Below, piece after piece: positions 3,613 to 32,476 of a DNA stretch of 40,062 nucleotides. Numbering within the stretch: the first letter of the stretch is position 1; the number at the start of each line of letters is the position of its first letter. This stretch comes from a virus (Duplodnaviria; Heunggongvirae; Uroviricota; Caudoviricetes), in the IMG/VR virus record IMGVR_UViG_2671180458_000005; one strand, given 5' to 3'. The notes under the pieces were generated by a model that was not told the origin of the DNA, made no database searches, and was given only the letters and a program-made list of their open reading frames with translations. A program made the position numbers and the translations under genes.

Positions 3613-6600
3613 ATGGCGACGTTACGTGAACTGATTATCAAAATTTCGGCAAATTCACAGTCATTCCAGTCGGAGATCCAGCGGGCGTCCCGTATGGGCA
3701 GTGAATATTACCGGACCCTGCAGAATGGCGGACGTCAGGCTGCTGCGGCAGCCAGGGAGCAGCGCCGGGCTCTGGCTGAGCTGAACAGCCAGTTGACGGA
3801 AATCCGCGCTTCGGCTGTCGGAATGACCGGTGCGTTTGCCGGTGCCTTTGCCACCGGACACCTGATTTCGCTGGCGGATGAATGGAGCTCCGTGAATGCC
3901 CGTCTGAAACAGGCGTCGCAGTCATCGGATGAATTTTCGTCATCACAGAAAGTGCTGATGGACATCAGCCAGCGGACAGGCACCGCATTTTCGGATAATG
4001 CGGCCCTGTTTGCCCGTTCGGCTGCCTCGATGCGTGAATATGGTTACAGTGCTGATGATGTGCTGAAGGTGACGGAGGCCATTTCGACAGGGCTGAAAAT
4101 TTCCGGTGCCAGTGCGGCAGAGGCGGGTTCGGTGATCACCCAGTTCAGCCAGGCGCTGGCACAGGGGGTGTTGCGCGGCGAGGAATTTAATTCGGTCAAT
4201 GAAAGTGGGGACCGGATCATTCGCGCACTGGCTGCAGGCATGGGCGTGGCCCGTAAGGATCTGAAGGCGATGGCGGACGATGGTCAACTGACGGCGGATA
4301 AAGTCGTTCCCGCGTTAATCAGCCAGCTGGGGATATTGCGTGATGAATATGCAGCCATGCCGGAAACGGTGTCTGACGGGATCACGAAGGTGGAAAACGC
4401 CTTTATGGCCTGGGTGGGCGGCGCGAATGAGGCCAGCGGAGCGACGAAAACGCTCTCCGGCGCACTGAACGGTGTGGCCGGAAATATTGATACCGTGGCA
4501 ACAGCTGCGGGTGTGCTGGTTGCTGTCGGGGTGGCCCGGTACTTTGGTAATCTGGCTTCCGGAGCGATGTCTGCCACGGCAGGACTTGTGACCGCTGCAC
4601 GTAATGAAGTGGCACTGGCTGAGGCCCAGTTAAGGGGAACGCAGATTGCCACGGCGCGGGCAAGGGCAGCCGTGTACCGGGCTCAGCAGGCTGTGGCGGC
4701 AGCCCGCGGGACTGAGATGCAGATTGCGGCAGAGGCCCGTCTGGCGGTCACACAGGAACGCCTGAACAGAAATATTGCTGCCAGAACCGCCGCCCAGAAT
4801 GCGCTGAACAGTACAACGGCGGTGGGCTCACGTCTGATGAGCGGTGCGCTGGGACTGGTTGGAGGCGTACCCGGACTGGTGATGCTGGGAGCTGCCGCAT
4901 GGTATACGCTGTACCAGAATCAGGAACAGGCCAGGGAGTCTGCGCACCAGTATGCACTGACGATTGATGAAATCGCGCATAAAACGCCATCAATGTCTCT
5001 GCCTGAAGCCTCAGATAATGAAGGGCGAACACGGGAGGCGCTGACAGAGCAGAACCGGCTGATTGATGAGCAGGCCAGCCGGGTGAAATCCCTGCAGGAA
5101 AAAATCGCCGGGTATCAGTATGTGCTGGCTAATCCGGGCTGGACGACCGGTAACGGCTTCATGATAAACCATCTGACATCGGTGAAAACTGTAACGGAAG
5201 GGCTTGCTCAGGCAACAGAGCAGTTTGCTGTTGAGCAGTCCCGTCTGGCACAGATGCAGGAAAAAGCGCAGTCCATTCAGGATGTGCTTGCCGGACTGGA
5301 AGAGCGCCGTGTTGTGTTAATTCGTCAGCAGGCGGCAGAGCAGAATAAAGCGTATCAGTCACTGCTGATCATGAACGGTCAGCATACGGAATTCAACCGC
5401 CTGCTGGGGCTGGGTAATGAACTGCTGCAACAGCGTCAGGGACTGGCGAGTGTACCGCTGCGACTGCCACAGGCCACTCTGGATGATAAACAGCAGGGCG
5501 CCCTGAATAACACAGAGCGTCAACTTGCCCTGTCCCGGCTGAAAGGGGAAGAAAAAGAGCGTGCCCGGCTGGGGTATGCGGCGGATGACCTTGGTCTGGT
5601 GGGGGATACGTATCAGGAGGCGAGGCAGCGTTACATCCGTAATTCGATGGAAGCCTGGCGCAATAATGAGGCGAATAAACCCAAATCCCGGGCCGGAAAA
5701 TCAGGGGCGGAAAAAGCGGAAGACAGTTTTTCCCGTCTGCTGAAGCAGCAGAAGGAACAACTGGCACTGGCCGGGAAGAATACAGAACTGGCAAAACTGA
5801 AATACCAGACCTCGCAGGGCGAGCTGAAAACCCTGACGGAGATACAGAAGCAGGAGCTGCTGCGCAATGCAGCCCTGATTGACCAGAAGAAAATTCGGGA
5901 GCAGTTACGGGCCCGGGAGGAGACCCTGAAAAATGATAATGCAGACGCAAGGGCATCAAATGACGCTGAGCTGCTGGGGTACGGGCAGGGTGAGCGGGTC
6001 CGTGAACGGATGCGGGAGCTGCAGCAGATTCGTGACGGCTACCGCCAGAAGGATGCGGACCTGCAGTCTCAGTATCAGACAGGGGATATCAGTGAGGATT
6101 TTTACAGACAGGCGCTGGCGCAGAATGCGCAGTATCTGAGTGAACGCCTTAAAGACCAGGAGGCTTTTTATGCCGAATCGGATGCGCAGCGTGCTGACTG
6201 GCAGAAAGGGCTGCAGGAAGGGCTAAGTAACTGGGTGGACAGCGCATCAGATTACGCTTCACAGGCAGCACAGCTTGCGACAGACGGTATCTCAGGGATG
6301 GTGAATAACATCACGGAGATGCTGAACGGAAATAAAGTGGAATGGCGCAGCTGGGCTGCATCAATCCTGCAGGAAATATCAAAAGTTCTTATGAATGCGG
6401 CCATTGTCAACGGCATTAAGATGGCGGCAAACAGTATGTCCGGTGCAGGAGGATTTTTCGGCAGTATAGGCAACTGGCTGGGTGGCGCGGTGGCAAATGC
6501 AAAAGGCGGCGTTTATACCTCGGCAAACCTGAGTGCATACAGTAACAGTATTGTGGACACGCCCACGTACTTTGCCTTTGCAAAAGGGGCAGGGCTGATG

Positions 6601-6855: not shown

Positions 6856-7189
6856 GATTAAGACCCTTCACTGGTGTCCCCGGGAAGGGATGCAGGTGAC
6901 GGAGAAACCGTCGGTGGTGACGGTGAAGTTTGGCGACGGTTATCAGCAACGTCGTCCGGCAGGACTGAATGCGCAACTGAAGACCTTTCAGGTGGTTTTT
7001 CGGGTGACAACGGATGCTGAGCGGGAGGCACTGTCCGCGTTTCTGTCATGGCATGGTGGTTACCGGGCTTTTTTGTGGAAGCCCCCGAAACATAACCGGA
7101 CGGTCAGGGTGGTGTGCCGGGAGTGGAGTATTACGGATAACGCCCGGTACAGTGATTTCAGTTGTACGATAGAGCAGGTAGTTGGATGA
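6848..7189 (+). CDS. M: Minor tail protein M
   Basis: 113 aa; GTG start overlapping tape-measure stop; motif FGDGYQQRRPAGLNA...WHGGYRAFLWKPP matches lambda M as recalled. Confidence 0.85.
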   Translation: MDEIKTLHWCPREGMQVTEKPSVVTVKFGDGYQQRRPAGLNAQLKTFQVVFRVTTDAEREALSAFLSWHGGYRAFLWKPPKHNRTVRVVCREWSITDNARYSDFSCTIEQVVG

Positions 7190-7387
7190 GAATTATCCTA
7201 TAAATCACTCTTTATTGTTTAGTTGTTAATTATTTTTAATCTGTCTTGTCAGAAAGTGCGAAATCGATCTTGTATTTACATTTTGTTACATAATATAAAT
7301 TGAACTAAGAATTTGTATTAAAATATTTTAATTTTTGTTCATGACATCTAAATGCATGAATAGTTCAGTTTAAATAAGGATTAAATC

Positions 7388-8542
7388 ATGAAAAAAATGA
7401 CAGTGGCACTTTCTGCTGTAGCAGTGGCAGTGATGTTTGCTGCGGGGGCGCAGGCAGCAGAAGTTTATAATAAAGATGGTAATAAACTGGATCTTTACGG
7501 GCGTGCAACCGCTCTGCATTACTTCTCGGATGATAAAGGTAATGACGGAGACCAGACTTATGCTCGTCTCGGCTTTAAAGGCGAAACGCAGATTAATGAT
7601 CAACTGACCGGATTTGGTCAGTGGGAATACCAGTTCTCTGGTAACAAAACGGAATCTGAAGGTTCCGCGGGAAATAAAACCCGTCTGGCATTTGCAGGTC
7701 TGAGATTTGCAGATGTTGGTACCATTGATTACGGACGTAACTATGGTATTGCTTACGATGTCGGATCATATACTGACGTACTGCCTGAGTTTGGTGGTGA
7801 TGGCTGGACGCAGACCGATAACTTTATGACGGCCCGAACTTCCGGTGTCCTGACATACCGTAATACAGACTTCTTCGGACTGGTTGATGGTCTGAATTTT
7901 GCGGCGCAGTATCAGGGCAAAAATGAGCGTGATGACCTTCAGAAGGCTAATGGCGACGGGTATGGTTTCTCGGCCAGCTATGAGTTTGATGGTTTTGGTT
8001 TTGTCGCTGCGTATACCAAGTCAGATCGTACTGATAAGCAGGTTCAGGGGTTGAATGGTACTGCAGATGTTCTTGATCCTGCATCAGGTAAAAAGGTTGG
8101 AGAAAAAGCAGTTGACTCAGGTAGTGTGGCAAAAGGTAAACATGCTGAATTCTGGGGAACTGGTCTTAAATATGATGCCAATAACCTGTATCTGGCAGCA
8201 GTGTATTCTGAAACCCAGAATATGACGACCTTTGGTGATCAAGGTGTTGCGGATAAAGCTCAGAATATCGAAGCCGTTGTTCAGTATCAGTTTGATTTTG
8301 GTCTGCGCCCGTCCCTTGCCTACCTTCAGTCCCGCGGACAGGATGTTATGGTTGGTGGTGTGAACCATGGCGATCAGGATCTGGTTAAATATATTGATGT
8401 CGGTGCGACTTATTACTTTAACAAGAATATGTCCACCTATGTTGATTATAAAATTAACCTGATTGATGAAAGTGAATTTACCCGGAAAGCCGGTGTTGCG
8501 ACAGATAATATCGTTGCTGTGGGTATGACTTATCAGTTCTGA
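7388..8542 (+). CDS. OmpC/OmpF-family general porin (phage-borne moron)
   Basis: 384 aa; signal peptide ending AQA then [15 protein letters not shown]...; internal PEFGGD and [14 protein letters not shown] motifs and C-terminal ...VGMTYQF; AT-rich 200-bp upstream region; lies between M and L. Confidence 0.9.
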
Positions 8543-8715
8543 TTATTGCTGATAAGTTAATAAATACGGGCCGTCTGCCCTTACAGGCGGCCTGTATCAA
8601 TGAAAACACAGTTTTCATTGGTCACTGCGATCAGCAATTGCCATCTGGCATGTGCTGATTTAACTTTCTGTTATTACCTTTATTGGTTTTATTTTAAATT
8701 GGACTTTTATTGTTC

Positions 8716-8739
8716 GGGGCGCGTCTGCGCCCCTTTTTT
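8716..8739 (+). terminator. Rho-independent terminator downstream of porin gene
   Basis: GGGGCGC-GTCT-GCGCCCC followed by TTTTTT, 12 nt before L start. Confidence 0.7.
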
Positions 8740-8751
8740 ATGGGCGGATAT

Positions 8752-9450
8752 ATGCAGGATATTCACGAAGAAAGCCTGAACGAGTCGGTTAAGTCAGAGC
8801 AGTCACCGCGGGTGGTGCTCTGGGAAATCGACCTGACGGTGCAGGGCGGTGAGCGGTATTTTTTCTGCAATGAGCTGAATGAAAAAGGGGAGCCGGTGAC
8901 CTGGCAGGGGCGTGAATATCAGGCGTACCCGATTGAGGGCAGCGGCTTTGAGATGAACGGAAAGGGCAGCAGTGCCCGCCCGTCGCTGACGGTCTCCAAT
9001 CTTTTCGGCCTTGTCACCGGGATGGCGGAGGATTTGCAGAGCCTGGTGGGTGCCACGGTGGTCCGCCGCCGGGTGTATGCGCGTTTTCTGGATGCGGTGA
9101 ATTTTGTGGCGGGGAATCCGGAGGCCGACCCGGAGCAGGAGCTGACGGACCGGTGGGTGGTGGAGCAGATGTCAGCGCTGACGGCCATGACGGCCTCGTT
9201 TGTGCTGGCGACACCGACGGAGACGGACGGTGCGCTGTTTCCCGGTCGCATCATGCTGGCGAACACCTGTATGTGGGATTACCGGGGCGATGAATGCGGG
9301 TATAACGGTCCGGCAGTGGCGGATGAGTTCGACAACCCCACCACGGATATCCGGAAGGACAGATGCAGTAAATGCATGCGCGGGTGTGAGATGCGCGGCA
9401 TGGTGGCTAATTTCGGCGGTTTCCTTTCCATTAATAAACTTTCGCAGTAA
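8752..9450 (+). CDS. L: Minor tail protein L
   Basis: 232 aa from ATG 8752 (MQDIHEESL...), same length as lambda L; upstream in-frame extension overlaps the terminator and is rejected. Confidence 0.85.
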   Translation: MQDIHEESLNESVKSEQSPRVVLWEIDLTVQGGERYFFCNELNEKGEPVTWQGREYQAYPIEGSGFEMNGKGSSARPSLTVSNLFGLVTGMAEDLQSLVGATVVRRRVYARFLDAVNFVAGNPEADPEQELTDRWVVEQMSALTAMTASFVLATPTETDGALFPGRIMLANTCMWDYRGDECGYNGPAVADEFDNPTTDIRKDRCSKCMRGCEMRGMVANFGGFLSINKLSQ

Positions 9451-11090: not shown

Positions 11091-11122
11091 ACAGGCACCC
11101 TCCGGGGTGCCTGTTGTTTTTG
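11091..11122 (+). terminator. Rho-independent terminator immediately upstream of J
   Basis: ACAGGCACCC-TCCG-GGGTGCCTGT followed by TGTTTTT. Confidence 0.7.
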
Positions 11123-11164
11123 GGCATAAACAGATTAAGACATCAGACAGGAGTGGGGGACAGA

Positions 11165-14100
11165 GTGGGTAAAGGGGGCGGCAAGGGGCACACACCGCGT
11201 GAGGCGAAGGACAATCTCAAGTCAACGCAGATGATGAGCGTGATTGATGCCATTGGTGAGGGACCGGTGGAAGGCCCGGTGAAGGGACTGCAGAGTATTC
11301 TGGTGAACAAAACCCCGCTGACGGACACGGACGGTAATCCCGTGATACACGGTGTGACCGCCGTCTGGCGTGCCGGGGAGCAGGAGCAGACACCGCCGGA
11401 AGGCTTTGAGTCCTCCGGGGCGGAAACCGCACTGGGCGTGGAGGTGACGAAGGCAAAGCCGGTGACGCGCACCATCACGTCAGCGAACATTGACCGTCTG
11501 CGGGTCACCTTCGGGGTGCAGTCACTGGTGGAGACCACCTCAAAGGGTGACCGTAATCCCTCTTCTGTCCGCCTGCTGATTCAGCTTGAGCGTAACGGGC
11601 ACTGGGTGACGGAGAAGGATGTCACCATTAACGGCAAGACCACCTCGCAGTACCTGACGTCGGTGATTCTGAATAATCTCCCTGAGCGCCCCTTTAACAT
11701 CCGGATGGTCAGGGAGACGGCGGACAGCACCACGGACCAGCTGCAGAACAGAACGCTGTGGTCGTCATACACCGAAATCATCGATGTGAAACAGTGCTAC
11801 CCGAACACGGCCATTGTGGGGCTGCAGGTGGATGCGGAGCAGTTCGGTGGCCAGCAGATGGTGGTGAACTACCATATCCGCGGCCGCATCATTCAGGTGC
11901 CGTCAAACTATGACCCGGAAAAACGCACCTACAGCGGTATCTGGGACGGGAGTCTGAAACCGGCATACAGCAATAACCCGGCCTGGTGCCTGTGGGACAT
12001 GCTGACCCACCCGCGCTACGGCATGGGAAAACGCCTGGGGGCCGCGGATGTGGACAAGTGGGCACTGTATGCCATCGGGCAGTACTGTGACCAGACGGTC
12101 CCGGATGGTTTCGGGGGAACAGAGCCGCGGATGACTTTCAATGCGTACCTGTCACAGCAGCGTAAGGTGTGGGATGTCCTGGGGGATTTCTGCTCGGCGA
12201 TGCGCTGTATGCCGGTATGGAACGGCCAGACGCTGACGTTCGTTCAGGACCGTCCGTCGGATGTGGTGTGGCCGTACACGAACAGCGATGTGGTGGTGGA
12301 TGATAACGGCGTGGGGTTCCGCTACAGCTTCAGTGCCCTGAAGGACCGGCACACGGCGGTGGAGGTGAATTACACCGACCCGCAGAACGGCTGGCAGACT
12401 TCCACTGAACTGGTGGAAGACCCGGACGCCATCCTGCGCTACGGGCGCAATCTGCTGAAGATGGATGCGTTTGGCTGTACCAGCCGCGGTCAGGCCCACC
12501 GTGCCGGACTGTGGGTGATAAAGACAGAACTGCTGGAAACGCAGACGGTGGATTTCACGCTCGGGTCACAGGGGCTGCGGCACACGCCCGGTGACATCAT
12601 TGAAATCTGTGATAACGACTATGCCGGGACCCTGACCGGTGGACGTATCCTGTCCATCGATGCCGCCAGCCGTACCCTGACGCTGGACCGTGAGGTGACA
12701 CTGCCGGAAGCAGGGACATCGACGGTGAACCTGATTAACGGCAGCGGTAAGCCGGTGCGCGTGGACATCACTGCACACCCCGCCCCGGACCGGATACAGG
12801 TCAGCGCCCTGCCGGATGGCGTGGAGACATACGGTGTGTGGGGACTCTCCCTGCCGTTACTGCGTCGTCGCCTGTTCCGCTGTGTTTCCATCCGGGAAAA
12901 CACGGACGGCACCTTTGCCATCACGGCAGTGCAGCACGTACCGGAAAAAGAAGCCATCGTGGATAACGGGGCCAGCTTTGAGCCGCTCTCCGGCTCACTG
13001 AACAGCGTTATCCCGCCGGCTGTGCAGCACCTCACGGTGGAGGTGAGTGCCTCAGACGGCCAGTATCTGGCGCTGGCGAAATGGGACACGCCGCGGGTGG
13101 TGAAGGGCGTGCGCTTCAGTCTGCGCCTGACCAGTGGCAGTGGTGAAAACAGCCGCCTGGTGACCACCGCCATCACTGCCGACACGGAGCACCGTTTCAG
13201 TGGCCTGCCGCCCGGGGAATACACCCTGACGGTCAGGGCGATAAACAGCTACGGCCGGCAGGGCGAACCTGCCACCACCACATTCCGGATTAATGCGCCT
13301 GCAGCACCGGCCAGCATTGAGCTGACGCCGGGGTATTATCAGATAACAGCAGTACCGGTGCTGGCGGTGTATGACCCGACGGTACAGTATGAATTCTGGT
13401 TCTCAGAAAAACGCATCACGGACATGGCACAGGTGGAAACCTCTGCCCGTTATCTGGGGACAGGCAGCCAGTGGAGTGTCTCCGGCCCGCACATTAAGCC
13501 GGGGAAGGATTTCTGGTTTTATGTGCGCAGCGTCAACCTGGTGGGGAAATCTGCGTTTGTGGAAGCCAGTGGCCGGGCCAGCAATGATGCGGAAGGGTAT
13601 CTGGGGCTGTTTCGGGAAAAGATAGGAAAACTGCATCTGGCACAGGGGATGTGGGAGCTGATTGATAACAGCCAGCTTGACGATGAGATGGCGGAGATGA
13701 AGACCACCATCACCGAAACCCGCAATGAAATCACGCAGACGGTCAGTAAAACCCTGGAAGACCAGAGTGCCACCATACAGCAGATACAGCGGGTGCAGAC
13801 AGACACAAATAACGACCTGGCTGCGCTGTACATGCTGAAGGTGCAGAAAACGAAAAACGGCATTCCGTATGTTGCCGGTATAGGTGCGGGGATTGAGGAT
13901 GCTGATGGTCAGCCCCTGAGCAATATACTGCTGCAGGCGGACCGTATCGCGATGATTAACCCGGAGAACGGCAACACCACGCCGCTGTTTGTGGCGCAGG
14001 GGAATCAGCTGTTCATGAACGATGTGTTCCTGAAGCGACTGTTTGCAGTGAGCATCACCTCGTCCGGCAATCCCCCGACGTTCTCCCTGACGCCGGAGGG

Positions 14101-14632
14101 CAGGCTGACGGCCCGCAATGCTGACATCAGCGGACATATCAGTGCGAACTCGGGCACGCTCAATAATGTCGTGATAGCGGAGAACTGTACGATAAATGGC
14201 ACGCTGAAAGCGGAGAACATTATTGGTGATCTTGTGAAATGTGCAGGGGTGGCTTTTCCGGTGGATGGTAGTTACCTTGCGAACGGTACACGAACGCTGA
14301 CGGTGTATGACGATCACAGCTTTGACCGGCAGATTATAATCCCGCCGATAATCTATGTCGGGTCAAAACAGGAATCCCGTACCAGTAATGACATCTGGAC
14401 AGAGTGCTTCCTGCATGTTGATCAGAACGGACGCCGGATTTATTCCGGCAGGTCAGTGACAGAGCCGGGAATTTTCAGCGGGATCATCGATATGCCAGCC
14501 GGTCATGGTCATATCACCCTGAGTTTTACCGTAAGTTCACGACGTCAGAACGGGAGTTTTGGCAGTTCACGTATCAGTAACCTTCAGGCGATAGTGGTGA
14601 AGAAAAACAGCGCGGGGATCAGCATCCGCTGA
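11165..14632 (+). CDS. J: Tail tip host-specificity protein J
   Basis: GTG start at 11165 giving (M)[21 protein letters not shown], matching lambda J N-terminus as recalled; GGAG 11 nt upstream; about 1155 aa; C-terminal ~150 aa look divergent from lambda J. Confidence 0.85.
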
Positions 14633-15114: not shown

Positions 15115-16515
15115 ATGACAGTCAGAATATCGGGTGTGCTGAAGGATGGTACGGGAAAAGCGGTACCGGGATGCACGATAGAGCTGAAAGCGCGCCGTAC
15201 AACGGAGACGGTGATTGTCACCACGGTGGCGTATGGTCAGCCGGGGGAAACCGGCAGTTACAGTATGGATGTTGAGCCCGGGTTATACCGGGTGACGCTG
15301 AACACGGAAGGGTACGCGCCGTCATATGTGGGTGACATTCTGGTGAAAGCGGATTCTGCACCGGGAACGCTGAATAAATTTCTGATGGACCTGGAAGACG
15401 CACCGTATTACCCGAAAGCCCTTGCAGAGCTGGAAGCGGTGGCAGCGGAAATCCTGAAACGTGCGGAAGCCTCCGCAGCCAGTGCGGAGGAGGCAAAAAA
15501 ACGGGCAGAGAATGCGCGGGGACCGAAGGGGGATAAGGGGGACACCGGGCCGCAGGGTATTCCCGGGCCAAAAGGCGATACCGGCGAGCGGGGGCCAAAG
15601 GGTGAGCGTGGTGAGACAGGACCACAGGGGCTTCAGGGTGTGAAAGGTGAACGGGGAGAGAAGGGCGAAAAAGGCGAGCCGGGAGGGCCGGATGCGACGA
15701 CGGCACAGAAGGGAATTGTGCAGTTAAGCAGCGCAACGGACAGTGATGATGAAACGAAGGCAGCCACCCTGAAAGCGGTGAAAGCGGCAATGGACAAAGC
15801 GGACGGATGCCTGGAGAAAGCGAAAAACGGTGACGATATCCCGGATAAGGTGAAGTTTCTGAACACCGTGGGAGCAGCCAGAGTATACGGGCGGGACATT
15901 CATACGGGGGCCGGTGAATGGACCACGAGTGAGTTTGTGGCCTGGCTGAAAGAAAAGGGGGCATTTGACCAGCCTTACTGGATGATGAAGGCATCACTGC
16001 TTGCGGAATTTAATAAGGTCATCACGGATGTCGGACCGGGAAAACTCAATCTGGGAGGCTGCGCCATTGAGGTGATGGGGACGTATAACGCAGCCATAGT
16101 CCGGGTCACCATCGGCGAATACGGTGGCGATGGTTTTCTGAACGGCACGGTCTGTACCTGTACAGTTTACGGAGACACACAACGTTTTCACTGGCGGGTG
16201 GATTACAGCACAAAAAACAAGCCCACAACAGCAAGCCTGACAGTAAATGGCTGGGAGCGTGATGAAGTAACCGGTCGTTTGCGGCAATGGGGCAGTATTG
16301 AGGTAAGTGAGGATGATGGTAAGCTTATGACACAACACTCTATCCGTTTTCCTGTCGCTTTTCCGGTTGCTGCTCTGAATGCTCAGGTGTCTGCAGTGGG
16401 AGACCCCAACGTCATTAAGATGTATACCCTGTCGAATCCGTCATTAGTGTCTGTGACTCTGATAACAGTCAGGGGATGCTACGGCAAGTTTTCATGGGAA
16501 GCGATCGGATACTGA
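15115..16515 (+). CDS. stf: Side tail fiber protein with collagen-like Gly-X-Y repeats
   Basis: N-terminus [28 protein letters not shown] matches lambda Stf N-terminus as recalled; [37 protein letters not shown] repeats; [10 protein letters not shown] motif. Confidence 0.85.
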
Positions 16516-16524: not shown

Positions 16525-16749
16525 ATGGAACAGTATGTTTTTTCACCGTCAGAGAATATGTTTTATCCCCTGTCCCTGCGGCCGGTTTATGAGGCAGCAG
16601 GGCGCTGGCCGGAAGACGGTATTGTGGTGGATTATGTGGTGTATAAAGTCTTTGCAGCGGATGCTGCACCGGCAGGTATGAAGCGGGGCGTCGGTGCGGA
16701 AAAAATGCCGGTCTGGGTGCCGGTATCGGAGGAGGGCACGGAAACATGA
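16525..16749 (+). CDS. Hypothetical small protein between stf and tfa (possibly tail fiber assembly-related)
   Basis: 74 aa ORF, ATGA overlap with following gene; no confident family recognition. Confidence 0.4.
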   Translation: MEQYVFSPSENMFYPLSLRPVYEAAGRWPEDGIVVDYVVYKVFAADAAPAGMKRGVGAEKMPVWVPVSEEGTET

Positions 16750-17414
16750 TGCATATCAGAAATTTTTCGTATTACACCCCGGCAGAGCCGGATGTTGCAG
16801 GCGCGATGTACCTGAAGTCTGAGGATGGTCAGGACTGGTATGAGTGTCAGGCGTTGTTTTCGCCGGAGACGCTGAAGGTGGTGTATGACAGCCGGGGTGT
16901 GATTACGGGATACGGTAAGGACACTGCGTTACTGTGGCCGGTGAACCAGAGTGTGGCAGAAGTGCCGGATACCCCGGAGAGCCGGAAAATTGACCTGAGC
17001 GGGCGCTGGGGCTTTGACGGGGAGAAAATCACGGACCTGCTGACCGCGGAGAAAGCGCGAGGGATGAAGGGCGATGAAATAAACGCGTGGCGTAATGCGA
17101 TGGAAGCGGCGAACTACACGTTTGAGCACAATGGGCGTAAATGGGACTACGGGAAGTCAACGCAGACGCGTCTTGAGCCGTCGGTGGCTGCAGCGAAAGC
17201 GGGGAAACTGCCGGAGGCGTTTTTCTGGACGGATGCGGAAAACAATGATGTGCCGGTGACAGCAGAAGAGCTTATAGCGCTGAGTGAAGCGGCAGAGCAG
17301 GCGATGTTCACTAAAGGGATGGAAATCCACATTCGCCAGCGCACCATGAAGAAGGAGCTGGAAAAGCTGACCAGTGCGGATGAGATACTGGCATACAGGG
17401 TGGACTGGAAATAA
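16746..17414 (+). CDS. tfa: Tail fiber assembly protein (Tfa family)
   Basis: 222 aa; N-terminal pattern (SEDGQDWYE...VVYDSRGVITG...AEVPD...GRWGFDG) resembles E. coli prophage Tfa proteins as recalled; position after stf. Confidence 0.65.
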   Translation: MMHIRNFSYYTPAEPDVAGAMYLKSEDGQDWYECQALFSPETLKVVYDSRGVITGYGKDTALLWPVNQSVAEVPDTPESRKIDLSGRWGFDGEKITDLLTAEKARGMKGDEINAWRNAMEAANYTFEHNGRKWDYGKSTQTRLEPSVAAAKAGKLPEAFFWTDAENNDVPVTAEELIALSEAAEQAMFTKGMEIHIRQRTMKKELEKLTSADEILAYRVDWK

Positions 17415-17905
17415 AAAGAAGGGGAGCGGATGCTCCCCTGATATCTGAGTAGTATGCTGTTTATCGTTATCATTCATCAAAAGAATATTACCGTATGGCA
17501 CGGCAGCAGAACATGAAATTTGTCTCAGAACTGCAAATCAGCATTACGGGTAGTCAGGCAGATAACACAACGGGATAAAAAAACAGCAAAATGCATTGAT
17601 AAAAAATTTTTACAGGTAGGTTACCGGGCGTTATGTGACGCATATCAAAAACAGAACTGTAACGGGAGATAACAGAATGATGGATTCTGGCGTGGAGTAA
17701 CGGCGCAATGCGTTCCGGGATGGTGTTTCTGAGAATGTGGCTGAAAACGCCCACAATACAGTAAGAAAAATCCTAATCGATTATATTAATTTTTACGGAA
17801 CTATTCGGAATACCCTTATGAAAGGCAACGAAGTGTCAGTATTTTTAATGTGTTCTGACACGCGTTGCTCTGTTTGTATACAAATCATTTCATAGGGTAT
17901 ACCAG

Positions 17906-19177
17906 ATGAACAAAAAATTCTCTAAGACTATTCTTTCTTCTGTTGTTGCCGGACTGTTGCTGGTAAGTAGTGGGGGTGTTGCAAAAGAGATTGATATTGG
18001 TGGTAAATATAAAGTTATTCTGACAGAGGAAACAGGTTCGGCAAGGATTGTGGATATAAATACTAAAAAAGATTTATTTGATGGAATTATTAATGCGAAA
18101 ACAGGCACTGTTACTACTGTAAACAAAAAAGAGATTCAATCTGCTATAGATAGTTTTTATGCCGCTAACCCAAAAATAAATAAAGATGATCCAAACATTA
18201 AACAGATGGTGGCTCAGGCTGCTGGTAATTCGGGGCGTTATACAGTCTCTTTACCCAGTGGGCTCCCTTCGTTAACGACTGAAAATATTTTCAATCTAAA
18301 AGTGACTGATATTGAAAAAATAAAATCTAATATTGATGGTGTTAATTCAGTTATCACCAGTAAAACTGCAAAAGATTACAATATTGCTATCAGTAACGGC
18401 ATGAGTTCAGAAGCTGCGCTAACAGCGGCTAAAGATGGTAATGGAGCGCTGTTACAGGAATTCAACCGTCTCGGCACAAATGTAAATGACCTGAAAAATG
18501 CCACTACATTTGCTCTTGATGAAAATGGTGAAATTACCTATGAAAAAGGAGTGGAAAGCATTCCTGTTAAGGATGTGGTTGCAGAGGTAAAAGCCGATAC
18601 AACAATTCGTAAGAACAAAGATGGCAGCTATACCCTGGATCAGACCGCGCCTGATACTGTTCGTGTGAACGCTGCAATTGTTGATCTGGATAAAAATCTG
18701 AAAGACAGAACCACTGTTGGCGTGAATTCAGACGGCAGCCTGACCACTGCTGAAGGAGCCACAAAAACTGTTGCGGTAAGTGAAGGCCTTGTTTCCCTGT
18801 CGGGAAGAACTGGCCGTATTGATGCTGCGGTTGGTGGCATTGACACCCGTGTCACCAAAAACACTCAGACTATCCAGAATCACTCCCGCCAGCTGCAGGA
18901 GCATAACGCGCGGCTGAACAGTCAGCAGCGTCAGATTCGTGAAAACCACGAAGAAATGAAACGTGCTGCTGCACAGAGTGCGGCACTGGCAGGTTTGTTC
19001 CAGCCGTACAGTGTGGGTAAATTCAACGCCACGGCAGCACTGGGTGGTTACAGTGACAAACAGGCTATGGCCGTTGGTGTGGGTTACCGCTTTAACGAGC
19101 AGACAGCAGCCAAAGCAGGTATTGCAGCCAGCGACGGTGATGTATCCTACAACGTTGGTGTGAACTTCGAGTTTTAA
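17906..19177 (+). CDS. Trimeric autotransporter adhesin with YadA-like C-terminal anchor (Eib-like family)
   Basis: 423 aa; N-terminal signal peptide; coiled-coil stretch ([42 protein letters not shown]); C-terminal beta-barrel anchor ending NVGVNFEF; low-GC, AT-rich upstream region. Confidence 0.65.
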
Positions 19178-19201
19178 TTGCGGACAGTGACATGAAGCAT
19201 G

Positions 19202-19234
19202 ACGGCAGGCAGGGGATTTGGCCTGCCGTTTTTT
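19202..19234 (+). terminator. Rho-independent terminator after adhesin gene
   Basis: CGGCAGGC...GCCTGCCG hairpin followed by TTTTTTT. Confidence 0.6.
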
Positions 19235-19264
19235 TCTCATGTGAGCATGAAACAGGGGGCTGCG

Positions 19265-19738
19265 ATGAAAGTGATTCTGGCGACCCGTAACCGTTATCTG
19301 GAGTACGGTCTGCAACAGATGCTGGAAGGTTACAGGGTGATACTGGCGAGGGAATTTTTTATCCCGGAGAACAGGAAGAGTGTACCGACCCATGATGAGT
19401 CCTGGGTGATTATCTGTGATGCTATGGTGAGTCGTCTGATGCGCTGTATGTTTCAGGGACGCCGTTATCTTCAACTGGATGCGGAGGAGATTACAGGGCG
19501 TCTGGAAACGGACAGGAAAATCCGTAACGGTGACTGGGAACAGAACACATACGCACGTCCGCTGACGATGTCAGAGATGGTGGTGATGTTTGGTTATGTA
19601 TACCGGGAGTCAAAGCCGTGTCATCTTGCCCGTGAAATGGGAATTCACACGAAGACAGTGAACACCTTTCTGTATATGGGGCTTGGTAAAAACGGCCTGA
19701 GGTACAGAAGTGTGAAGCATCTTGTGGGGCGGGCATAG
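19265..19738 (+). CDS. LuxR/GerE-type HTH transcriptional regulator
   Basis: Start at ATG 19265 behind AGGGGG; C-terminal segment LTMSEMVVMFGYVYRESKPCHLAREMGIHTKTVNTFLYMGLGK fits LuxR-type HTH pattern. Confidence 0.5.
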   Translation: MKVILATRNRYLEYGLQQMLEGYRVILAREFFIPENRKSVPTHDESWVIICDAMVSRLMRCMFQGRRYLQLDAEEITGRLETDRKIRNGDWEQNTYARPLTMSEMVVMFGYVYRESKPCHLAREMGIHTKTVNTFLYMGLGKNGLRYRSVKHLVGRA

Positions 19739-20570
19739 CCGCGTTTTGTTATCCGGGGGTGAAGAATAATCTGGTAAATTGTCATGAAACAGGCAAATCT
19801 GAAATACGTAAAGAAGCGCTACACAGCAGGAGCGATGTGTTTCATGCTTTTTGTGTGGCTGGGTACGGTGGTAACGCTCTGTGCAGTGGCTGCCTTAATG
19901 ATGCAATAAAAAAGGGGAGCTGCACAGCTCCCCGACCAGAAGAAAGAAACTTGATTACAATAAGTGAGTTGTTAAGTCGTCAGAATAATGGCATACAAAA
20001 TATGTCATGACAGCGATACCGATCGCGTTTAGTAAAGTGGGGTTAGGTCGTATTTCGCTCGCGCACGGTTACATGCTTCATTAACCACACCATTGTTGCC
20101 GGACATAGGAAATTCCCTGCAGGTGGATGAGCGATTTTCATAAATGCTGTAGCAGGCATTGACTCTCGGTTGACCGCTCAGGACCACACAGCGAGGATTT
20201 TTCTGGTTAGTGCTCTGCATGCATCGATGGTACGGAGAAATCTGTTCTGTCAGTGTTACGGGGATGGTACCGCCAGCATCATCTGCTTCAGCTCAGTAAA
20301 AAGAGACGCGGAAAAATGCACAACAGGCACCACACATCACGCATGGATTAGGATTGTTCATAAATTCACTACGCAAGTATTAGTAATGATAATGGATAAC
20401 AGACAATATTTTATCAGAAAGAAAAAAGTAAGATGGTCAAAAATGCCCCAAAGAAAGCTTGGAATATTCTTCTTAAATTTCACGTGATTTATTGATTTTT
20501 CGTGTATGTTTTTAATACATTTATTCCAAGAAAAATTTATAACCTTTTGATTTTACGATTCGGTATTATC

Positions 20571-20631
20571 GGTCTCGAAAACCGGAGTGGGGGCAACTCC
20601 ACCGGGGGTTCAAATCCCCCTCTCTCCGCCA
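20571..20631 (+). other. 3-prime fragment of a tRNA-Ser (serU-like) gene = attP core
   Basis: GGTCTCGAAAACCGGAGTGGGGGCAACTCCACCGGGGGTTCAAATCCCCCTCTCTCCGCCA matches anticodon-arm-to-CCA portion of E. coli serU as recalled; 5-prime half absent; adjacent to int 3-prime end. Confidence 0.65.
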
Positions 20632-20683
20632 GAATTCAATCACTTACACATCATTAAGTCAATGATGAAAATCACACTTGGAA

Positions 20684-21709
20684 TTACTTGGAATATTTTG
20701 TTGGAATATTCTGGGGTAATGGTACATCCAGTGTGGGTGAGATCTTTACTTTTCTATCATAGATTAGCACCTGTCCTTCGGTCTTGTGACCAGAGAAAAG
20801 TTGCTTATCCCGGCTACTACCTTCGTAATCTGATATCCCCTTGGCTTTAAGGTCATGGAATGTAAAATCCGTCGCGATCCCTGATATTTGTCCAGCCAAA
20901 TTTCTTGCCTCAACCCACATTTCATTAAATCCTTTATACATGTAACGGTTGCCGTACTGATTGCTGATTACATAGGCTGACTTGGGTAGCTGTTTAGCTT
21001 TTTCTATAACTGATTGCAGACGGGGAGTCCAGGCTTTTATCTGTTTCTTTCCTGTTTTACCTTGCTGGATAAAGATCCCGTCGTTTCCGATCTGTTCCCA
21101 TTTCAGAGACAACACATCGGAAATCCTTGCTGCGCACAGGTATGCAATTTCCATTGCGATAAAAACAGGCACAGGAGCCACGCTTAATACGGCCTGGTAT
21201 TCTTTGTCAGTCACATAGCGCTCTCGGTTTTTGGCCTTGAATTTACTTACACCGGCACAAGGATTAGCCTTTACATACCCTCGTTCATACCCCCAACTGT
21301 AAACGCGTGACATGCTGCTTTTTTCATGGTTTGCCTGCGTTTTACTCTGCTCGCCCCTTTTGTCCATGTATCGTCTGATGTGCTCTGGTTTTACAGAATC
21401 GGCCAGCACCTTACCGAATACGGCCAGCAGTTTTTTTTGATGTTGCAGATAATCTTTTTGCGTTCTGGGACTAAGATCGCTGTAATAGGCGCTGGCGAGA
21501 AATTTTTCCCACAAACGCCCAAATGTCATTGCGTGATCATGATGGTTAACCGTTTCTTCATATTTTTTCCATAATGCGGCTAAACCATCCTTGATTGCAG
21601 TTAAGGTTACAGATTCTCTGGATGTTGGTTTCCATACATAACTATATTTATTGGGATATACCTTTGGCGGTAATTTTTCGTGTTCGGGATTTTTCCTTCG
21701 TCTTCCCAT
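20684..21709 (-). CDS. int: Tyrosine site-specific integrase
   Basis: 341 aa; position next to att core and upstream xis; Arg/His/Tyr-containing C-terminal region typical of phage integrases. Confidence 0.85.
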   Translation of the reverse strand: MGRRRKNPEHEKLPPKVYPNKYSYVWKPTSRESVTLTAIKDGLAALWKKYEETVNHHDHAMTFGRLWEKFLASAYYSDLSPRTQKDYLQHQKKLLAVFGKVLADSVKPEHIRRYMDKRGEQSKTQANHEKSSMSRVYSWGYERGYVKANPCAGVSKFKAKNRERYVTDKEYQAVLSVAPVPVFIAMEIAYLCAARISDVLSLKWEQIGNDGIFIQQGKTGKKQIKAWTPRLQSVIEKAKQLPKSAYVISNQYGNRYMYKGFNEMWVEARNLAGQISGIATDFTFHDLKAKGISDYEGSSRDKQLFSGHKTEGQVLIYDRKVKISPTLDVPLPQNIPTKYSK

Positions 21710-21970: not shown

Positions 21971-24415
21971 TTAAAAATCAGCCTGATTTGGGAACAGTTT
22001 TTGCCAGATAGCTGAAACGTATTTTGCCTGGTAACGCGCATCGTGCAGGGCATTATGGCGTTCACCCTCAAATGTGGTGACGTTGCGGGCATCGAAATCC
22101 ATCACCAACCCCAGAGCGACCATCGTTCTTACATCGCGATCATTGGTGTAACGCCACGGGCAGGGGATCTCCTGCCGTTCATATGAACGGCGTAAAATCA
22201 CGTTGTCGAAGTTGGCTCCATTTCCCCAGACCTGAACAAAAAACTCACCGGAGTTTTCGTCTATAAATTCCCGTAATTGTAAAAGCGCATCATCAAGCGG
22301 TATTCGATCAGCTAAAATGGCGGCACGGGCTTCGCCAGAGCGTTGAAGCCACCATTCGATGGTGCTTATGTCTACAGTGCCGCCACATGTACCCATATCA
22401 ATTATTTTGCTGAATTCAGGCCCCTGCTCTCCGGTTTGTGGATCGAAAAATACAGCGCCTATTGAGGCTATTGGTGCGTCAGGATTTTTGCCCATTGTTT
22501 CAAGGTCAATCATCAGATGGTGCCACAACCTGCTGGTGGATGTGATTTCACGATGACCGTTCACCTTAATTAAGAGATTTGCTGTCTCGCCTGTTTCATT
22601 ATTGCCATTGGCATGTTGATCGCCTTCGGTGCACTCCTTGTTCGGGAGTCCGGCACTTTCCATTTCCTCCGGATCTTTTTCCCGGGCTTCATCCTGGCTT
22701 TCTTCGTTGAATGTCTCCTGGTATGTTGCGTCGCCCATCACCGCGCCACAGTCAGGACAGTTGCCGCCGCCGGTCTGACCGCAGGCTGTGCAGACTTTTT
22801 CCGGTTCCTGTTGCGCTACTGGTTCAGGCTGTTTCGTTTCTGGCTCGTTTTGTTGCGCATTTGGACTGTGTTGTTCCGCTTTATGGCCTTTCTGTTCCGT
22901 TTCTTGCTGGTTATGGTTCACAGAATCGCGGGTTTCAATCCCCTTCACCCATTTTGGATCATTCGGGTCGCTAATCCCTTCAACAAATTCTCCGTGAGAA
23001 GCAGCCAGTAATTTATCTGCATCGACAGGATTTTTGGGTGGAATGTTTTTCCTGGCTTCATAGAGTTCTGCACGCAGTTTCTGATATTTCGCATCAACAG
23101 AATTTATCTGTGGCTGAGCATTCATCGACTGCGTGTCCTGATTATGTTCAGTTGTATCCGGTTCCACTGCTTCAGTCGTTGCCTGTTCATCTGCCATTGC
23201 GCCAGATGGCTGCGGTTTTTCTTCATCATCCTGTTTTCCTTCTTTTGTTACACGCTGCGGCATTGGAGCAGAGGAGCGACCGCAGGCAATATCCACGATT
23301 TCTGGATCAGGGTTGGCATGGTCGGTTTCGGTCAGTACTTTGTTCAGATATTCGGTAACACGGTGGGGAGTAGCCTCGATACCAATTGGTGCTTCTTTCA
23401 CGGACGCAACCACTATCGCGCGGGAATAATCCAGGTGACCAGGCATGGCGATGAATTTGTCACGAAAAACAGAAAAGGGCGGCTTATTCTCTGAAACGAT
23501 TTCTTCAATGCGTTTGGCGTGTGCCGGATGTGGATTGTAAATATCGATGTCCATTGAACGGGCCAGAACGCCAGCGGCAACGTCACGTTCCACTGACGCA
23601 TCATCGTGGACAAAACCTTCACCGCGATCGGTAAGAATTCCTCCGCCAGCATTAGCGCCGGATGGCGTGCGGCTGATGCGTAAAGCACGATTTCCTTTCA
23701 TCCACTCTTTTGTCAGCAGACCTCGATCGGTATAGTCAGCGTCCAGGTATGCTTCGAAAAAAGCAGTCATTAACCCCAGACTGGAATTAACGGGATTAGG
23801 GAAAACTTTGTCTGTGTCGCGTACCAGTTTGTGAAGGTCGCGAATCTCCAGCGGGTCGAGCAGCTTTGTGTTGTGGGAAATAGCCAGGGCAGTAACAGCA
23901 GGCAGTTCTTCAGCTCGTGCGATATGTAATGCCTGAAGTTCTTCCCGTGAAACGTGCGTTACCGGTTTTTCGCTGCCATGTTGCGCAAGCCAGCGAATGG
24001 GCAGTTCCTGACCGGAAATCGGCAGGAGCATATTATCCTCAATCTCAGCCATGTCTTCGCCATTGACGTTGGTATTGTCAGTGCTGGCTGGTTTGTCCTG
24101 AACTGAGGGGGAAGGCGCTATAAATATCATTGTGATGCCATCTTCTCCGCCTTTTTCATAGCGGTTGCAGAATTCGGTATCAAACACACCTTCAGGCGGC
24201 AGGTCATTAACAATGGGCAAATTCACGCGAACAGGTTTTTTGAAATCCTCTTCGTCAAATCCAGCATCGTCCATTGCGACAACACCCCGTGATATTGCAA
24301 CCGATAATTTTTTTGCTGTGCGCCAGTAAAAACCGCCTTTAATCCCAAGGCGTTTTCTGACTTTGTCATTTTTGGCTTCGTAATACAGTGCAATTTCTTC
24401 TTTATCAGTGCTCAT
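21971..24415 (-). CDS. Large exonuclease with C-terminal DnaQ-like DEDDh 3-5 exonuclease domain and central zinc-ribbon motif
   Basis: 814 aa; C-terminus has MIDLETMG (Exo I-like) and [15 protein letters not shown] (Exo III-like) motifs; [16 protein letters not shown] Cys4 motif; acidic linker; N-terminal part resembles prophage proteins annotated exodeoxyribonuclease VIII (recalled). Confidence 0.7.
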
Positions 24416-29958: not shown

Positions 29959-30633
29959 ATGGAAACCGTTTTTGACGCACTGCAAGCAATGGGAAAAGCC
30001 ACATCCATAGAACTTGCTGCGCGACTTGGTATCAGTCGTGAAGAAGTGCTGAACGAGTTGTGGGAACTGAAAAGAAATGGCGTCGTTGATAAAACGGGTC
30101 ACACCTGGTTTCTGGCTGGTAAAGGTGAATCCGGGGTAACCGAAGAGCAGCCAGCACAATCTGAAGTACCGGATGTGCTGACCGGGGAGGTCGAACAAAA
30201 AGTTACCGCGGACATGATGATTGAGTTTATCTGTCAGGATGGGGCTAAAACGTGTGAGGAACTGGCGGATAAGTTCGGTGTTAGCATTCGCAAGGTTGCT
30301 TCCACGTTGGCGGTCGTAACAGCAACGGGGCGCCTGGCACGCGTAAATCAGAACGGTAAATTTCGTTACTGCATACCGGGCGCTGATTTACCGGCAGAGC
30401 CGGAAGCTGCATCCGTAGCGGAAACCGATGGTAAAGCCTTTCCTCAGCCAGCAGGTGTTGCGTTACCAGTTCGGGAAGCGGAAACACAGGAAGAAATAAA
30501 AACGGAAAGTGTGGCGGTCACAGTGCAGTCACAGCCGTCGTTCACCAGAAAGCATCCGGATGGTCTGATTTTACCATCGCTGCATGTGGCTAACCGCGAG
30601 CTGCGCCGGGCAAAAGGTCAGGTTCAGAAGTGA
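29959..30633 (+). CDS. Hypothetical protein with winged-helix-like segments (DUF1627-like)
   Basis: Start ATG 29959 behind GGAGG; family assignment from memory only. Confidence 0.45.
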
Positions 30634-31034
30634 GAGCGAGTCTGCGCCGCGCTACGGGAGCTGAACAAGTGCCGGGATATTCTCCGGGATATTACCGCCA
30701 CCAGAGAACAGCAGCGGTGAGTGGCTGGAAGACGTGGTGCCGGGCTGAAATCCTGATACTCCGCCAGTGTGTGGGAACTATGAAGGTGAAAAGCATTGGC
30801 GCACTTATCGGACGAACTGAAGCGGCAGTGAGAACGAAGGCACTGGAGCTGGGCATCAGTATGATGTTACGTGGTGATTTTCACCCGTCGGCAAAATATT
30901 CACAGCGTGATATTGAGCTGGCGCGGCAACTGCATCAGCGCGGTGTACCCCGACGGGAAATTGCCGAAAAGTTCGGAATGAAGTTGCGTGCAGTGAATAA
31001 CTACGTTTATTTCGACAGGAGGATTCAGGCGTGA
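30630..31034 (+). CDS. Hypothetical protein with C-terminal HTH-like segment
   Basis: GTG start overlapping previous stop; alternative start ATG 30780; C-terminal [18 protein letters not shown] looks HTH-like. Confidence 0.4.
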
Positions 31035-31336
31035 GGGTGAGAATTTATATCGCCGGTCCGATGACGGGATATGAAAATTTCAACCGCGAGGCGTTTCACA
31101 GGGCGGAAGAAGCGCTGAAACGGGAAGGGCATACCGTTTTAAACCCGGCAGTACTTCCGGACGGGCTGACTCAGCCACATTACATGGATATTTGCATGGC
31201 AATGATTCGTTGTGTGGATGCAATTTACATGCTGAAAGGCTGGCAGCGGTCGGCAGGCGCTAAGGCAGAACTGGCACTGGCAGAGAAACTGGGACATGCG
31301 GTGATTTTCCAGGAGGCAACCAGTGAGCGAAATTAA
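31031..31336 (+). CDS. Nucleoside 2-deoxyribosyltransferase-like protein (DUF4406-like)
   Basis: 101 aa; GTG start behind AGGAGG; N-terminal RIYIAGPMTG...F motif characteristic of the deoxyribosyltransferase-like fold. Confidence 0.6.
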   Translation: MRVRIYIAGPMTGYENFNREAFHRAEEALKREGHTVLNPAVLPDGLTQPHYMDICMAMIRCVDAIYMLKGWQRSAGAKAELALAEKLGHAVIFQEATSERN

Positions 31337-31483
31337 TTACCAGGAACTACGGCAGGTGAAAGAGAAAGCATAATCCAGAACTGAATAATTAAAATCAGCA
31401 CTGTAAATAAAATTTAATCCTTAACCGGAGGGATTTCTGCACCCTCAGAACATCAGGAGACCGCCCGGCAGGGCGGTAGTGAA

Positions 31484-31666
31484 ATGCGAAAGTTCAAAAT
31501 AATTATTGAAACGGGAATAGCCGGTGGAGATTTTGAGGATGTATTCGAAGTGGACGATGACGCAACACCTGATGAAATTCATGACGAAGCAAAAGAAATT
31601 TTCTTTAACTACTGCAATTACTCATATCACGAAATAAAAGACGAAGAGGAAGAACAAAATGGCTGA
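31484..31666 (+). CDS. Small highly acidic protein (hypothetical)
   Basis: 60 aa, about one third Asp/Glu; stop overlaps start of next small ORF (ATGGCTGA). Confidence 0.5.
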   Translation: MRKFKIIIETGIAGGDFEDVFEVDDDATPDEIHDEAKEIFFNYCNYSYHEIKDEEEEQNG

Positions 31667-31835
31667 TTTTGGTTCAACTAAATACAACGTCAGTTTTGAA
31701 GAATGGCATGAACTGTTAATGGACTATGCAGAGTTACGTGGTGGCAGTGCTGCTGATGCTGAAGCATGGCGTGATGATTATGAAGCAGGAAAAACTCCGG
31801 TCGAAGCATATTGTGATGAGTGGGGCGATGAATGA
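31659..31835 (+). CDS. Small acidic protein (hypothetical)
   Basis: 58 aa MADFGSTKYNVSFEEWHELLMDYAELRGGSAADAEAWRDDYEAGKTPVEAYCDEWGDE; overlaps both neighbours by 4-8 nt; not in ORF track. Confidence 0.5.
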   Translation: MADFGSTKYNVSFEEWHELLMDYAELRGGSAADAEAWRDDYEAGKTPVEAYCDEWGDE

Positions 31836-32427: not shown

Positions 32428-32439
32428 ATTGCCGAAAAA

Positions 32440-32476
32440 AGATCCCGCCACAAACATGAGCCGGGATCTTTGATTT
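32440..32476 (+). terminator. Possible intrinsic terminator
   Basis: AGATCCCG...CGGGATCT stem with 14-nt loop followed by T-rich tract. Confidence 0.4.

Follow-up and report, generated by a model that had tools for sequence, protein, structure and literature searches.

The prophage-borne Eib proteins of Escherichia coli, namely EibA, EibC, EibD and EibE from the P-Eib prophages of strain ECOR-9 and EibG from E. coli strains that produce Shiga toxin (STEC), provide the cell with binding of immunoglobulin Fc (fragment crystallizable) regions, serum resistance and chain-like adhesion. In EibG, the D391A mutation abolishes binding to the Fc region of immunoglobulin G (IgG) and leaves chain-like adhesion intact, while removal of the head-to-saddle part leads to a loss of adhesion with Fc binding retained (Kotaka et al. 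2026, PMC13534694). The same study describes the chain-like adhesins ClaA and ClaB, EibG-related trimeric autotransporters with a marked saddle, which possess neither the Eib N-terminal domain nor the Fc-binding Asp and whose genomic contexts are said to differ from those of the Eib loci (PMC13534694); for EibG, ClaA and ClaB, that paper also reports serum resistance. Here, these systems are compared with a locus at 17415..19738 of the viral DNA IMGVR_UViG_2671180458_000005, the whole stretch of which (40,062 nucleotides) is referred to as the window. The locus encodes a trimeric autotransporter adhesin of 423 residues and, downstream of it, a small protein from an open reading frame (ORF) termed ORF-157.

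The locus is read here as a lysogenic-conversion cassette of Eib type, carried in its b region by a lambdoid phage whose integration site is the serU tRNA gene, a reading to which a probability of about 0.75 is given. A first-pass annotation of the DNA had proposed such cargo, and its interpretation is supported. The cassette is the expected kind of phage cargo, as in the P-Eib prophages and for EibG, and is not a new system; the general picture of prophage cargo is left unchanged. Its by-products are a two-class view of the adhesin heads, a fold-level identification of the ORF-156 family, to which ORF-157 belongs, and three conserved promoter elements.

The window is a lambdoid phage with the gene order of the lambda map, arranged in phage rather than prophage order. 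Tail gene J (11114..14632), a side tail fibre gene (15115..16515) and a tail-fibre-assembly-like (tfa-like) gene (16746..17414), in which a library scan finds DUF4376, precede the cassette. On its other side lie the attP region (~20566..20646) and the integrase gene (20684..21709, minus strand), the latter also identified by the library scan. The attP region contains the 3' ~60 nucleotides of a tRNA-Ser(CGA) gene, which we take to be serU; ARAGORN does not call this fragment because the gene is partial. The match to a 97-98% identical integrated prophage of E. coli FHI_NMBU_10 ends at 20646, and the next gene there is yodB. Since the cassette sits between the tail fibre genes and attP/int and the homology ends at this point, the designation as b-region cargo, made in a first-pass annotation of the DNA, is fitting. 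Furthermore, the P-EibA/C/D/E records and RefSeq prophages show an identical succession of tfa(DUF4376), adhesin, ORF-156 and small ORF, and the locus shares with the Eib loci an upstream region of ~170 bp, a terminator after the adhesin gene, and its site after the tail fibre assembly gene.

Eib-type stalk and anchor, and a different head

The adhesin gene (17906..19177, plus strand) encodes a protein that is already deposited, exact and unnamed, as RefSeq WP_062872231, with the annotation 'YadA C-terminal domain-containing protein'. Its membrane anchor (residues 365-423; 18998..19174, plus strand) matches the Pfam family YadA_anchor (PF03895) with an E value of 1.2e-15 and 57.8 bits against a cut-off of 22.7 bits, bearing out the YadA-type C-terminus that the first-pass annotation had recognised. 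By sequence, the anchor also matches PDB entry 2lme (E 3.7e-18), and a fold search with the predicted model returns the anchors of YadA, Hia and AtaA. A partial match to the NCBIfam family YadA_autotrans spans residues 142-423 (65 bits, against a cut-off of 750). In the AlphaFold2 monomer model, a continuous helix of residues 291-364 lies ahead of the anchor, which is the mark of a coiled-coil stalk. The anchor domain and the type Vc architecture are those of YadA from Yersinia, from which the window adhesin differs in having neither a beta-roll head nor a neck.

The earlier proposal that the protein is Eib-like holds for its C-terminal ~180 residues, which extend from the saddle through the IgG-Fc-binding coiled coil to the anchor. 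In BLAST comparisons, residues 243-423 are 78% identical to EibE over 185 residues and 64-73% identical to EibA, EibC and EibD; with these proteins and EibG the adhesin shares the YadA-type anchor, the saddle with a left-handed coiled coil (64-78% identity) and the Fc-binding Asp. The IgG-binding fragment of EibD, known from crystal structure 2xqh, is the best solved relative both by sequence (E 1.3e-20) and by fold, with 58% identity and a root-mean-square deviation of 1.4 A over 76 columns. The Eib-homologous stalk segment containing the Fc-binding region comprises residues 264-332 (18695..18901, plus strand). Saddle and left-handed coiled coil make up the final ~100 residues of the passenger, which are closely homologous to the IgG-Fc-binding segment in EibD, EibE and EibG. 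Within it, D306 (18821..18823), in the context GRIDAAVGG, aligns with D387 of EibD and D391 of EibG. The pair D306-A307 is positioned opposite D387-Y388 of EibD, and the same D-A pair is found in EibG and EibA. It is noted in passing that the designation 'EibD D378-Y388' in PMC13534694 misfits the EibD sequence, in which residue 378 is Ala and residues 387-388 are the D-Y of RIDY; because D391 and A392 of EibG are adjacent, with an offset of four, D387-Y388 must be meant.

The head, in turn, is a different, uncharacterised domain. The adhesins of 26 eib-type cassettes fall into two large head classes, class I with the Eib N-terminal domain and class II with a head of the window type. The first ~240 residues of the window adhesin are not Eib-like: neither the Eib N-terminal domain nor a YadA-like beta-roll shows any detectable similarity to them. 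Its stalk is also shorter than that of the Eib proteins. BLAST gives no match to EibA, EibC, EibD or EibE before residue 220, and Pfam identifies no head, neck or repeat family in this N-terminal part, the YadA beta-roll head and neck being absent. An assignment of the head as a divergent Eib N-terminal domain was rejected, hhalign giving probabilities of 0.1-3% in two rounds, the second of which compared 11 class I with 40 class II sequences. EibA also lacks the beta-roll, but it has kept the Eib N-terminal domain (PMC7568254, PMC12511318). Stalk homology, the Fc-binding Asp and the prophage context are all found in the window protein, whereas the N-terminal 'Eib region' is not.

The protein begins with a Sec signal peptide (residues 1-26; 17906..17983, plus strand), read from the sequence with a likely cleavage site before KE, and in the alignment the N-terminus is kept throughout the adhesin family. 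The class II head (residues 27-199; 17984..18502, plus strand) is encoded where the gene is low in GC. AlphaFold2 models it as a small beta-sheet followed by six helices, with a predicted local distance difference test score (pLDDT) of 80-92 over residues 26-199. Three saddle-like beta-hairpin inserts with short helices between them follow in the model (pLDDT 41-69), and are tentatively placed at residues 200-290 (18503..18775, plus strand) by the DSSP assignment of the model and the alignment with EibD. Each insert starts with TT-x and contains DG/NG-x-x-T, the EibD 'saddle' pattern being common to all three. The third is the Eib saddle itself, and one long helix runs from there to the anchor.

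This head class is common in E. coli prophages. A search with residues 1-265 returned 208 clusters at 90% identity; the named ones are all from E. coli or Shigella, and their annotations go no further than 'YadA C-terminal domain-containing' or 'YadA-like family' protein. Of 34 class II proteins aligned at full length, 27 have 350-380 residues and lack a block of ~55 residues, corresponding to window residues ~264-319, that consists of the Eib saddle and the Fc site. The window adhesin resembles such prophage adhesins, among them the 'adhesin' of phage GER2 (AVD99023) and RefSeq entries of 350-380 residues, in its head (34-86% identity), anchor and cassette. Unlike most of them, it carries the ~55-residue Eib segment with the Fc site, as do 7 of the 34 in all. 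Moreover, the gene looks like a recombinant, in which a low-GC hypervariable head is combined with the conserved stalk and anchor of the Eibs. This is because identity to the DNA of strain KY174 is 95.5% in the upstream region and signal peptide, nil in the head and 87% in the 3' part, and because, of 5426 complete E. coli genomes, only 9 contain the first ~300 nucleotides of the window head. Several human or food STEC isolates are among the genomes with this head, including JNEC-KY202, a strain of the Kotaka study (PMC13534694), which carries the window gene at 99% identity. The GC profile agrees with such a mosaic. The GC content is 36-40% over 17501..18500, compared to 53-59% in the tail genes, and returns to 49-52% in the 3' half of the adhesin gene; the low-GC island noticed in the first-pass annotation is therefore the head-coding part only.

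Like ClaA and ClaB, the window protein lacks the Eib N-terminal domain and possesses a saddle. It is not, however, a Cla protein as defined by Kotaka et al., being set apart from the descriptions of ClaA and ClaB by D306 and by its Eib context. Two candidates for known Cla genes were tried and rejected: the common 377-residue class II allele, considered as claB, is present in only 4 of the 5426 complete genomes, and hits in JNEC-KY208 and FHI_NMBU_10, considered as ClaA or ClaB, are 508-residue EibG-type loci instead. Strains with the window allele or its relatives also carry such a second cassette, composed of the 508-residue EibG-type adhesin, ORF-156 and an S6-family (Eaa-like) autotransporter, as at locus L062 of FHI_NMBU_10 (30377..32463) and locus L061 of JNEC-KY208, and in some genomes the number of matching places reaches 7.

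ORF-157 and the promoter region of the cassette

The adhesin gene has its own intrinsic terminator (19202..19237, plus strand), as the first-pass annotation had stated. Its stem, ACGGCAGGC/GCCTGCCGT, occupies 19202..19229, has TTTTTTT after it and folds as RNA with -19.9 kcal/mol (z -2.9), and a stem_loop is annotated at the equivalent place in the P-EibA/C/D/E records. The start at 19199 that had been given for the small ORF lies inside this hairpin and is discarded in favour of the ATG at 19265, which has GGGGG in front, agrees with the RefSeq call WP_024175323, and is the residue from which family PHROG 6585 aligns. ORF-157 (19265..19738, plus strand) consists of 157 residues and is 89% identical to ORF-156E and ~68% identical to ORF-156A/C/D of the P-Eib prophages. 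This ORF-156 family, labelled 'unknown function' as PHROG 6585, is confined to E. coli prophages.

The AlphaFold2 model of ORF-157 (pLDDT 83.9; predicted template-modelling score 0.77) shows a truncated receiver-like domain followed by a helix-turn-helix (HTH) of the LuxR/GerE type. When it is searched against the PDB with Foldseek, the top 36 matches are all NarL/FixJ-type proteins (FixJ, StyR, RcsB, LiaR, EvgA, DesR, VpsT, VraR and DosR), with probabilities mostly of 0.75-0.99 and of 0.54-0.60 for two DosR chains. Foldseek also aligns the DNA-binding domain of VqmA (32% identity, 3.4 A, 68 columns). By sequence, the family profile matches only VqmA and the GerE HTH among PDB entries, at a sub-threshold E of ~0.1, and this alignment covers the pattern LTxxExxV...IAxxMGIxxKTV.

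The phospho-acceptor pocket of receiver domains is made up of an acidic pair after strand b1, an Asp after b3, a Thr or Ser after b4, and a Lys after b5. The N-terminal domain of ORF-157 ends after four of the usual five strands; the Asp that follows strand 3 (D52) is invariant in the family, while invariant T7 and N9 stand in place of the acidic pair. The receiver is therefore probably degenerate, and its phosphorylation probably not possible. In its predicted two-domain fold and C-terminal four-helix HTH, ORF-157 resembles NarL/FixJ regulators with atypical receivers, such as RcsB with its auxiliary partners, EvgA and VpsT, and differs from the regulators of this class in the four-stranded receiver that keeps only D52. 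ORF-157 would accordingly be a small NarL/FixJ-like DNA-binding protein, and the description 'LuxR-type' is accepted at the level of the predicted fold. The LuxR-like HTH of the first-pass annotation survives in this form, and not as a family match.

Upstream of the adhesin ATG, ~170 bp can be aligned across otherwise different eib-type loci, which is the length of the eibG promoter fragment used by Kotaka et al. (PMC13534694). Three elements stand out in this region. The first, TAAGAAAAATCCTA (17762..17775, plus strand), 144 nucleotides upstream of the ATG, conforms at every position to the RcsB box consensus TN(G/A)GAN4TC(T/C)NA (PMC7913699) and is a candidate site for RcsB or an RcsB-like protein. 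The pattern has 3 matches in the window, compared to 1.6 expected. At the aligned place, it recurs with at most one mismatch in 14 of 15 distinct eib-type upstream alleles, and it is found in none of the loci in which a relative of ORF-157 occurs without an adhesin.

The second element is the inverted repeat GTGTCAG-N15-CTGACAC (17833..17861; -73 to -45 from the ATG), a candidate operator. The first-pass annotation had seen this repeat, which is real, with arms one base too short. It may nonetheless have no regulatory role, as a chance palindrome or merely as a part of the core promoter. Its right arm contains CTGACA, a -35-like hexamer located 16 nucleotides from TATACA (both read by eye). 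In addition, perfect 7-bp repeats are not rare in an AT-rich spacer: the 491-bp intergenic region contains 3, compared to 1.3 expected, and since 3 are reached in 15% of simulations, the inverted repeat alone is within chance. The repeat is also degenerate in the EibC, EibD and EibE alleles, which are expressed. Conversely, diverged alleles searched one by one have, at the same distance, arms that differ in sequence around a recurring core TCAG-N15/16-CTGA (GTGTCAG/CTGACAC, ACATCAGAT/ATCTGATGT, TCAGATT/AATCTGA and TCAGAT/ATCTGA), and only 0-7% of shuffles of the 65-nucleotide region reach such a repeat in those diverged alleles. An apparent lack of conservation of the right arm was an alignment artefact caused by indels. 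An RNA hairpin at this place was considered and rejected, RNAalifold finding two compensatory pairs, a covariation term of about zero and weak structure support; as there is no covariation bonus, which also fits a repeat without function, a protein operator is a better guess than an RNA hairpin. On these grounds, the repeat is regarded as a candidate operator with the core TCAG-N15-CTGA, and the absence of any regulatory role as rather unlikely.

The third element, the palindrome TGTATACA (17875..17882), lies at -31 from the ATG; almost every eib-type allele has it between -30 and -32, and an overlap with the core promoter is probable. By the criteria of a sigma-70 scan, the adhesin has no plus-strand promoter upstream of it. 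Together, the RcsB-box match, the TCAG-N15-CTGA palindrome and TGTATACA suggest, as candidates, control by host or phage regulators of the NarL/FixJ class. With the linked gene for a regulator-like protein of LuxR-type fold, the RcsB-box match and the conserved palindrome are testable candidates for the control of eib genes, which is poorly understood.

Control of the cassette promoter by ORF-157 itself is possible. Among the viral-contig loci with enough upstream DNA, all 20 of the 20 in which a relative of ORF-157 reaches 63% identity or more have an adhesin ending in NFEF 83-91 nucleotides upstream. Several observations, most of them concerning ORF-157, weigh against the reading of the locus as a whole. 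ORF-157 matches nothing in Pfam up to an E value of 10, GerE (PF00196) and Response_reg included, and nothing in NCBIfam. A hidden Markov model search with the family profile over 1.84 billion representatives returned 37 relatives, all of them family members or fragments, and thus no sequence bridge to the LuxR proteins. The LuxR assignment rests on a predicted fold for which Foldseek gives E values of ~1e-3 and template-modelling scores of 0.3-0.48, modest scores of the kind to be expected when domain orientations differ. Relatives of ORF-157 at 55-60% identity occur directly after stf/tfa with no adhesin (loci L034-L059). Furthermore, ORF-157 lies behind a strong terminator with ~28 nucleotides to spare, leaving no room for a promoter of its own, and is therefore probably expressed by read-through. 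Sandt, Hopper and Hill are said to have found in 2002 that eib expression in K-12 lysogens required the unlinked genes ibrAB; ORF-156 would therefore not be a sufficient activator. In the adhesin, the head fold is provisional, as it comes from a monomer model of an obligate trimer, and the trimer may differ. Finally, the window allele has Gly at the third position ahead of the critical Asp (TGRID), a place at which all other aligned Eib-type sequences, that is, the characterised Eibs and the class II relatives carrying the segment, have Asp or Glu (the motif is TDRID, and TERLD in two of the class II relatives).

Alternatively, ORF-157 may not regulate the adhesin at all. It could instead be a general b-region gene of lambdoid prophages, its adjacency to the adhesin being linkage only. 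Its targets would then be genes of the host or other genes of the phage, or it would serve as a partner or decoy for host regulators of the FixJ/NarL type, for instance RcsB. The adhesin-free relatives are consistent with this. At one of their loci, L039, the ORF-156-family member (3501..4043, plus strand) has as its opposite-strand neighbour (4525..5847, minus strand) the type III effector gene nleA, whose product is 83-84% identical to NleA4795. Likewise, the truncated receiver-like domain without an acidic pair is reminiscent of the non-phosphorylated auxiliary partners of RcsB (for the concept, see PMC5829831), and the RcsB-box match accompanies the adhesin promoter and not the adhesin-free relatives of ORF-157. 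Yet the linkage is strict among the closer relatives, and the palindrome is conserved in the adhesin promoter. A regulatory link to the adhesin is accordingly kept as possible, and mere adjacency considered the less likely case, if by no means a negligible one.

Proposed function of the adhesin

As a member of its family, the adhesin would be a type Vc autotransporter, in which the four-strand anchors of three chains form one 12-stranded barrel. The barrel would export the passenger to give a trimeric fibre with the N-terminal head at its tip. By analogy with the characterised Eibs, this fibre most likely binds IgG Fc in a non-immune manner via its stalk and adds to serum resistance, both activities being proposed because the segment is conserved. 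The part from head to saddle may serve in self-association or adhesion, and the head itself is an uncharacterised class II domain in place of the Eib N-terminal domain and the YadA beta-roll.

Alternatively, the adhesin might be Cla-like in function, a surface fibre whose head and saddle inserts confer self-association, chain-like adhesion and resistance to serum, with no binding of immunoglobulin. The stalk segment derived from Eib would then be no more than a structural spacer. The head does work without the IgG segment, which 27 of the 34 aligned class II proteins lack, and the window allele has the Asp-to-Gly change beside its RID motif. In addition, chain-like adhesion is separable from Fc binding and needs the head-to-saddle part (PMC13534694). 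However, the segment is 58-78% identical to those of the Fc-binding Eibs and has kept the Asp whose loss abolishes binding, in a D-A pair identical to that of EibG and EibA, and EibG stripped of its head-to-saddle part retains Fc binding (PMC13534694). Fc binding by the stalk thus remains the preferred reading, and a purely Cla-like function is unlikely.

The Fc-binding stalk module is, then, also joined to a second head class that is widespread and uncharacterised, and screens by polymerase chain reaction or BLAST that are based on known eib genes would therefore miss such alleles. A more far-reaching proposal, which appears quite improbable, is that the ORF-156 family is an unrecognised, prophage-restricted NarL/FixJ branch with a pseudo-receiver that switches on b-region cargo (Eib-type adhesins and, elsewhere, nleA) via TCAG-N15-CTGA or with RcsB at the RcsB box, which, if true, would tie the expression of phage-borne surface virulence factors to envelope or surface sensing, and, separately, that the class II head is a new adhesin tip domain lacking any solved relative, its hypervariability determining the specificity of self-recognition.

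Neighbouring and other features of the phage

At the left border of the cassette, directly 3' of the tfa-like gene, is a GC-rich hairpin, AGGGGAGC/GCTCCCCT (17420..17439), with a T-run on the minus strand. Downstream of ORF-157, an ORF of 41 residues (19784..19909, plus strand) with one hydrophobic helix matches PHROG 9340 (E 5.4e-16). Among the P-Eib genes, its relative is the 3' part of orf-60, with a DNA match to orf-60A/C, and its counterpart is an annotated coding sequence in the RefSeq relatives KY174 and KY177. The cassette ends in a strong hairpin, GGGGAGCTG/CAGCTCCCC (19914..19933), which folds with -16 kcal/mol (z -4.5), has an A-run in front and a T-run on the minus strand. Between this end and attP lies a 63-residue fragment of a YkgJ/CxxCxxCC cysteine-cluster protein (20029..20220, minus strand); its RefSeq counterpart is flagged as a pseudogene with an internal stop.

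Elsewhere in the window, a gene for a 384-residue Gram-negative porin (7388..8542, plus strand; Pfam Porin_1, E 5.9e-144) interrupts the series of tail genes behind those for the tape-measure and gpM-like proteins. It lies within a low-GC stretch (7000..9000), and the FHI_NMBU_10 prophage, otherwise 97-98% identical, does not have it. A further RcsB-box match, TGAGAATTATCCTA (7187..7200), is found ~190 nucleotides upstream of it. Stx phages have a group of tRNA genes upstream of stx. A similar arrangement is found late in this genome (37456..37707 and 37877..38308), where three tRNA genes (Met-CAT, Arg-TCG and Arg-TCT) are followed by an ORF with a TerB domain and a low-GC stretch without an stx-sized ORF. 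Finally, an early-region protein of 814 residues (21971..24415, minus strand) combines the N-terminal domain of exonuclease VIII with a C-terminal Rv2179c-like 3'-5' exoribonuclease domain.

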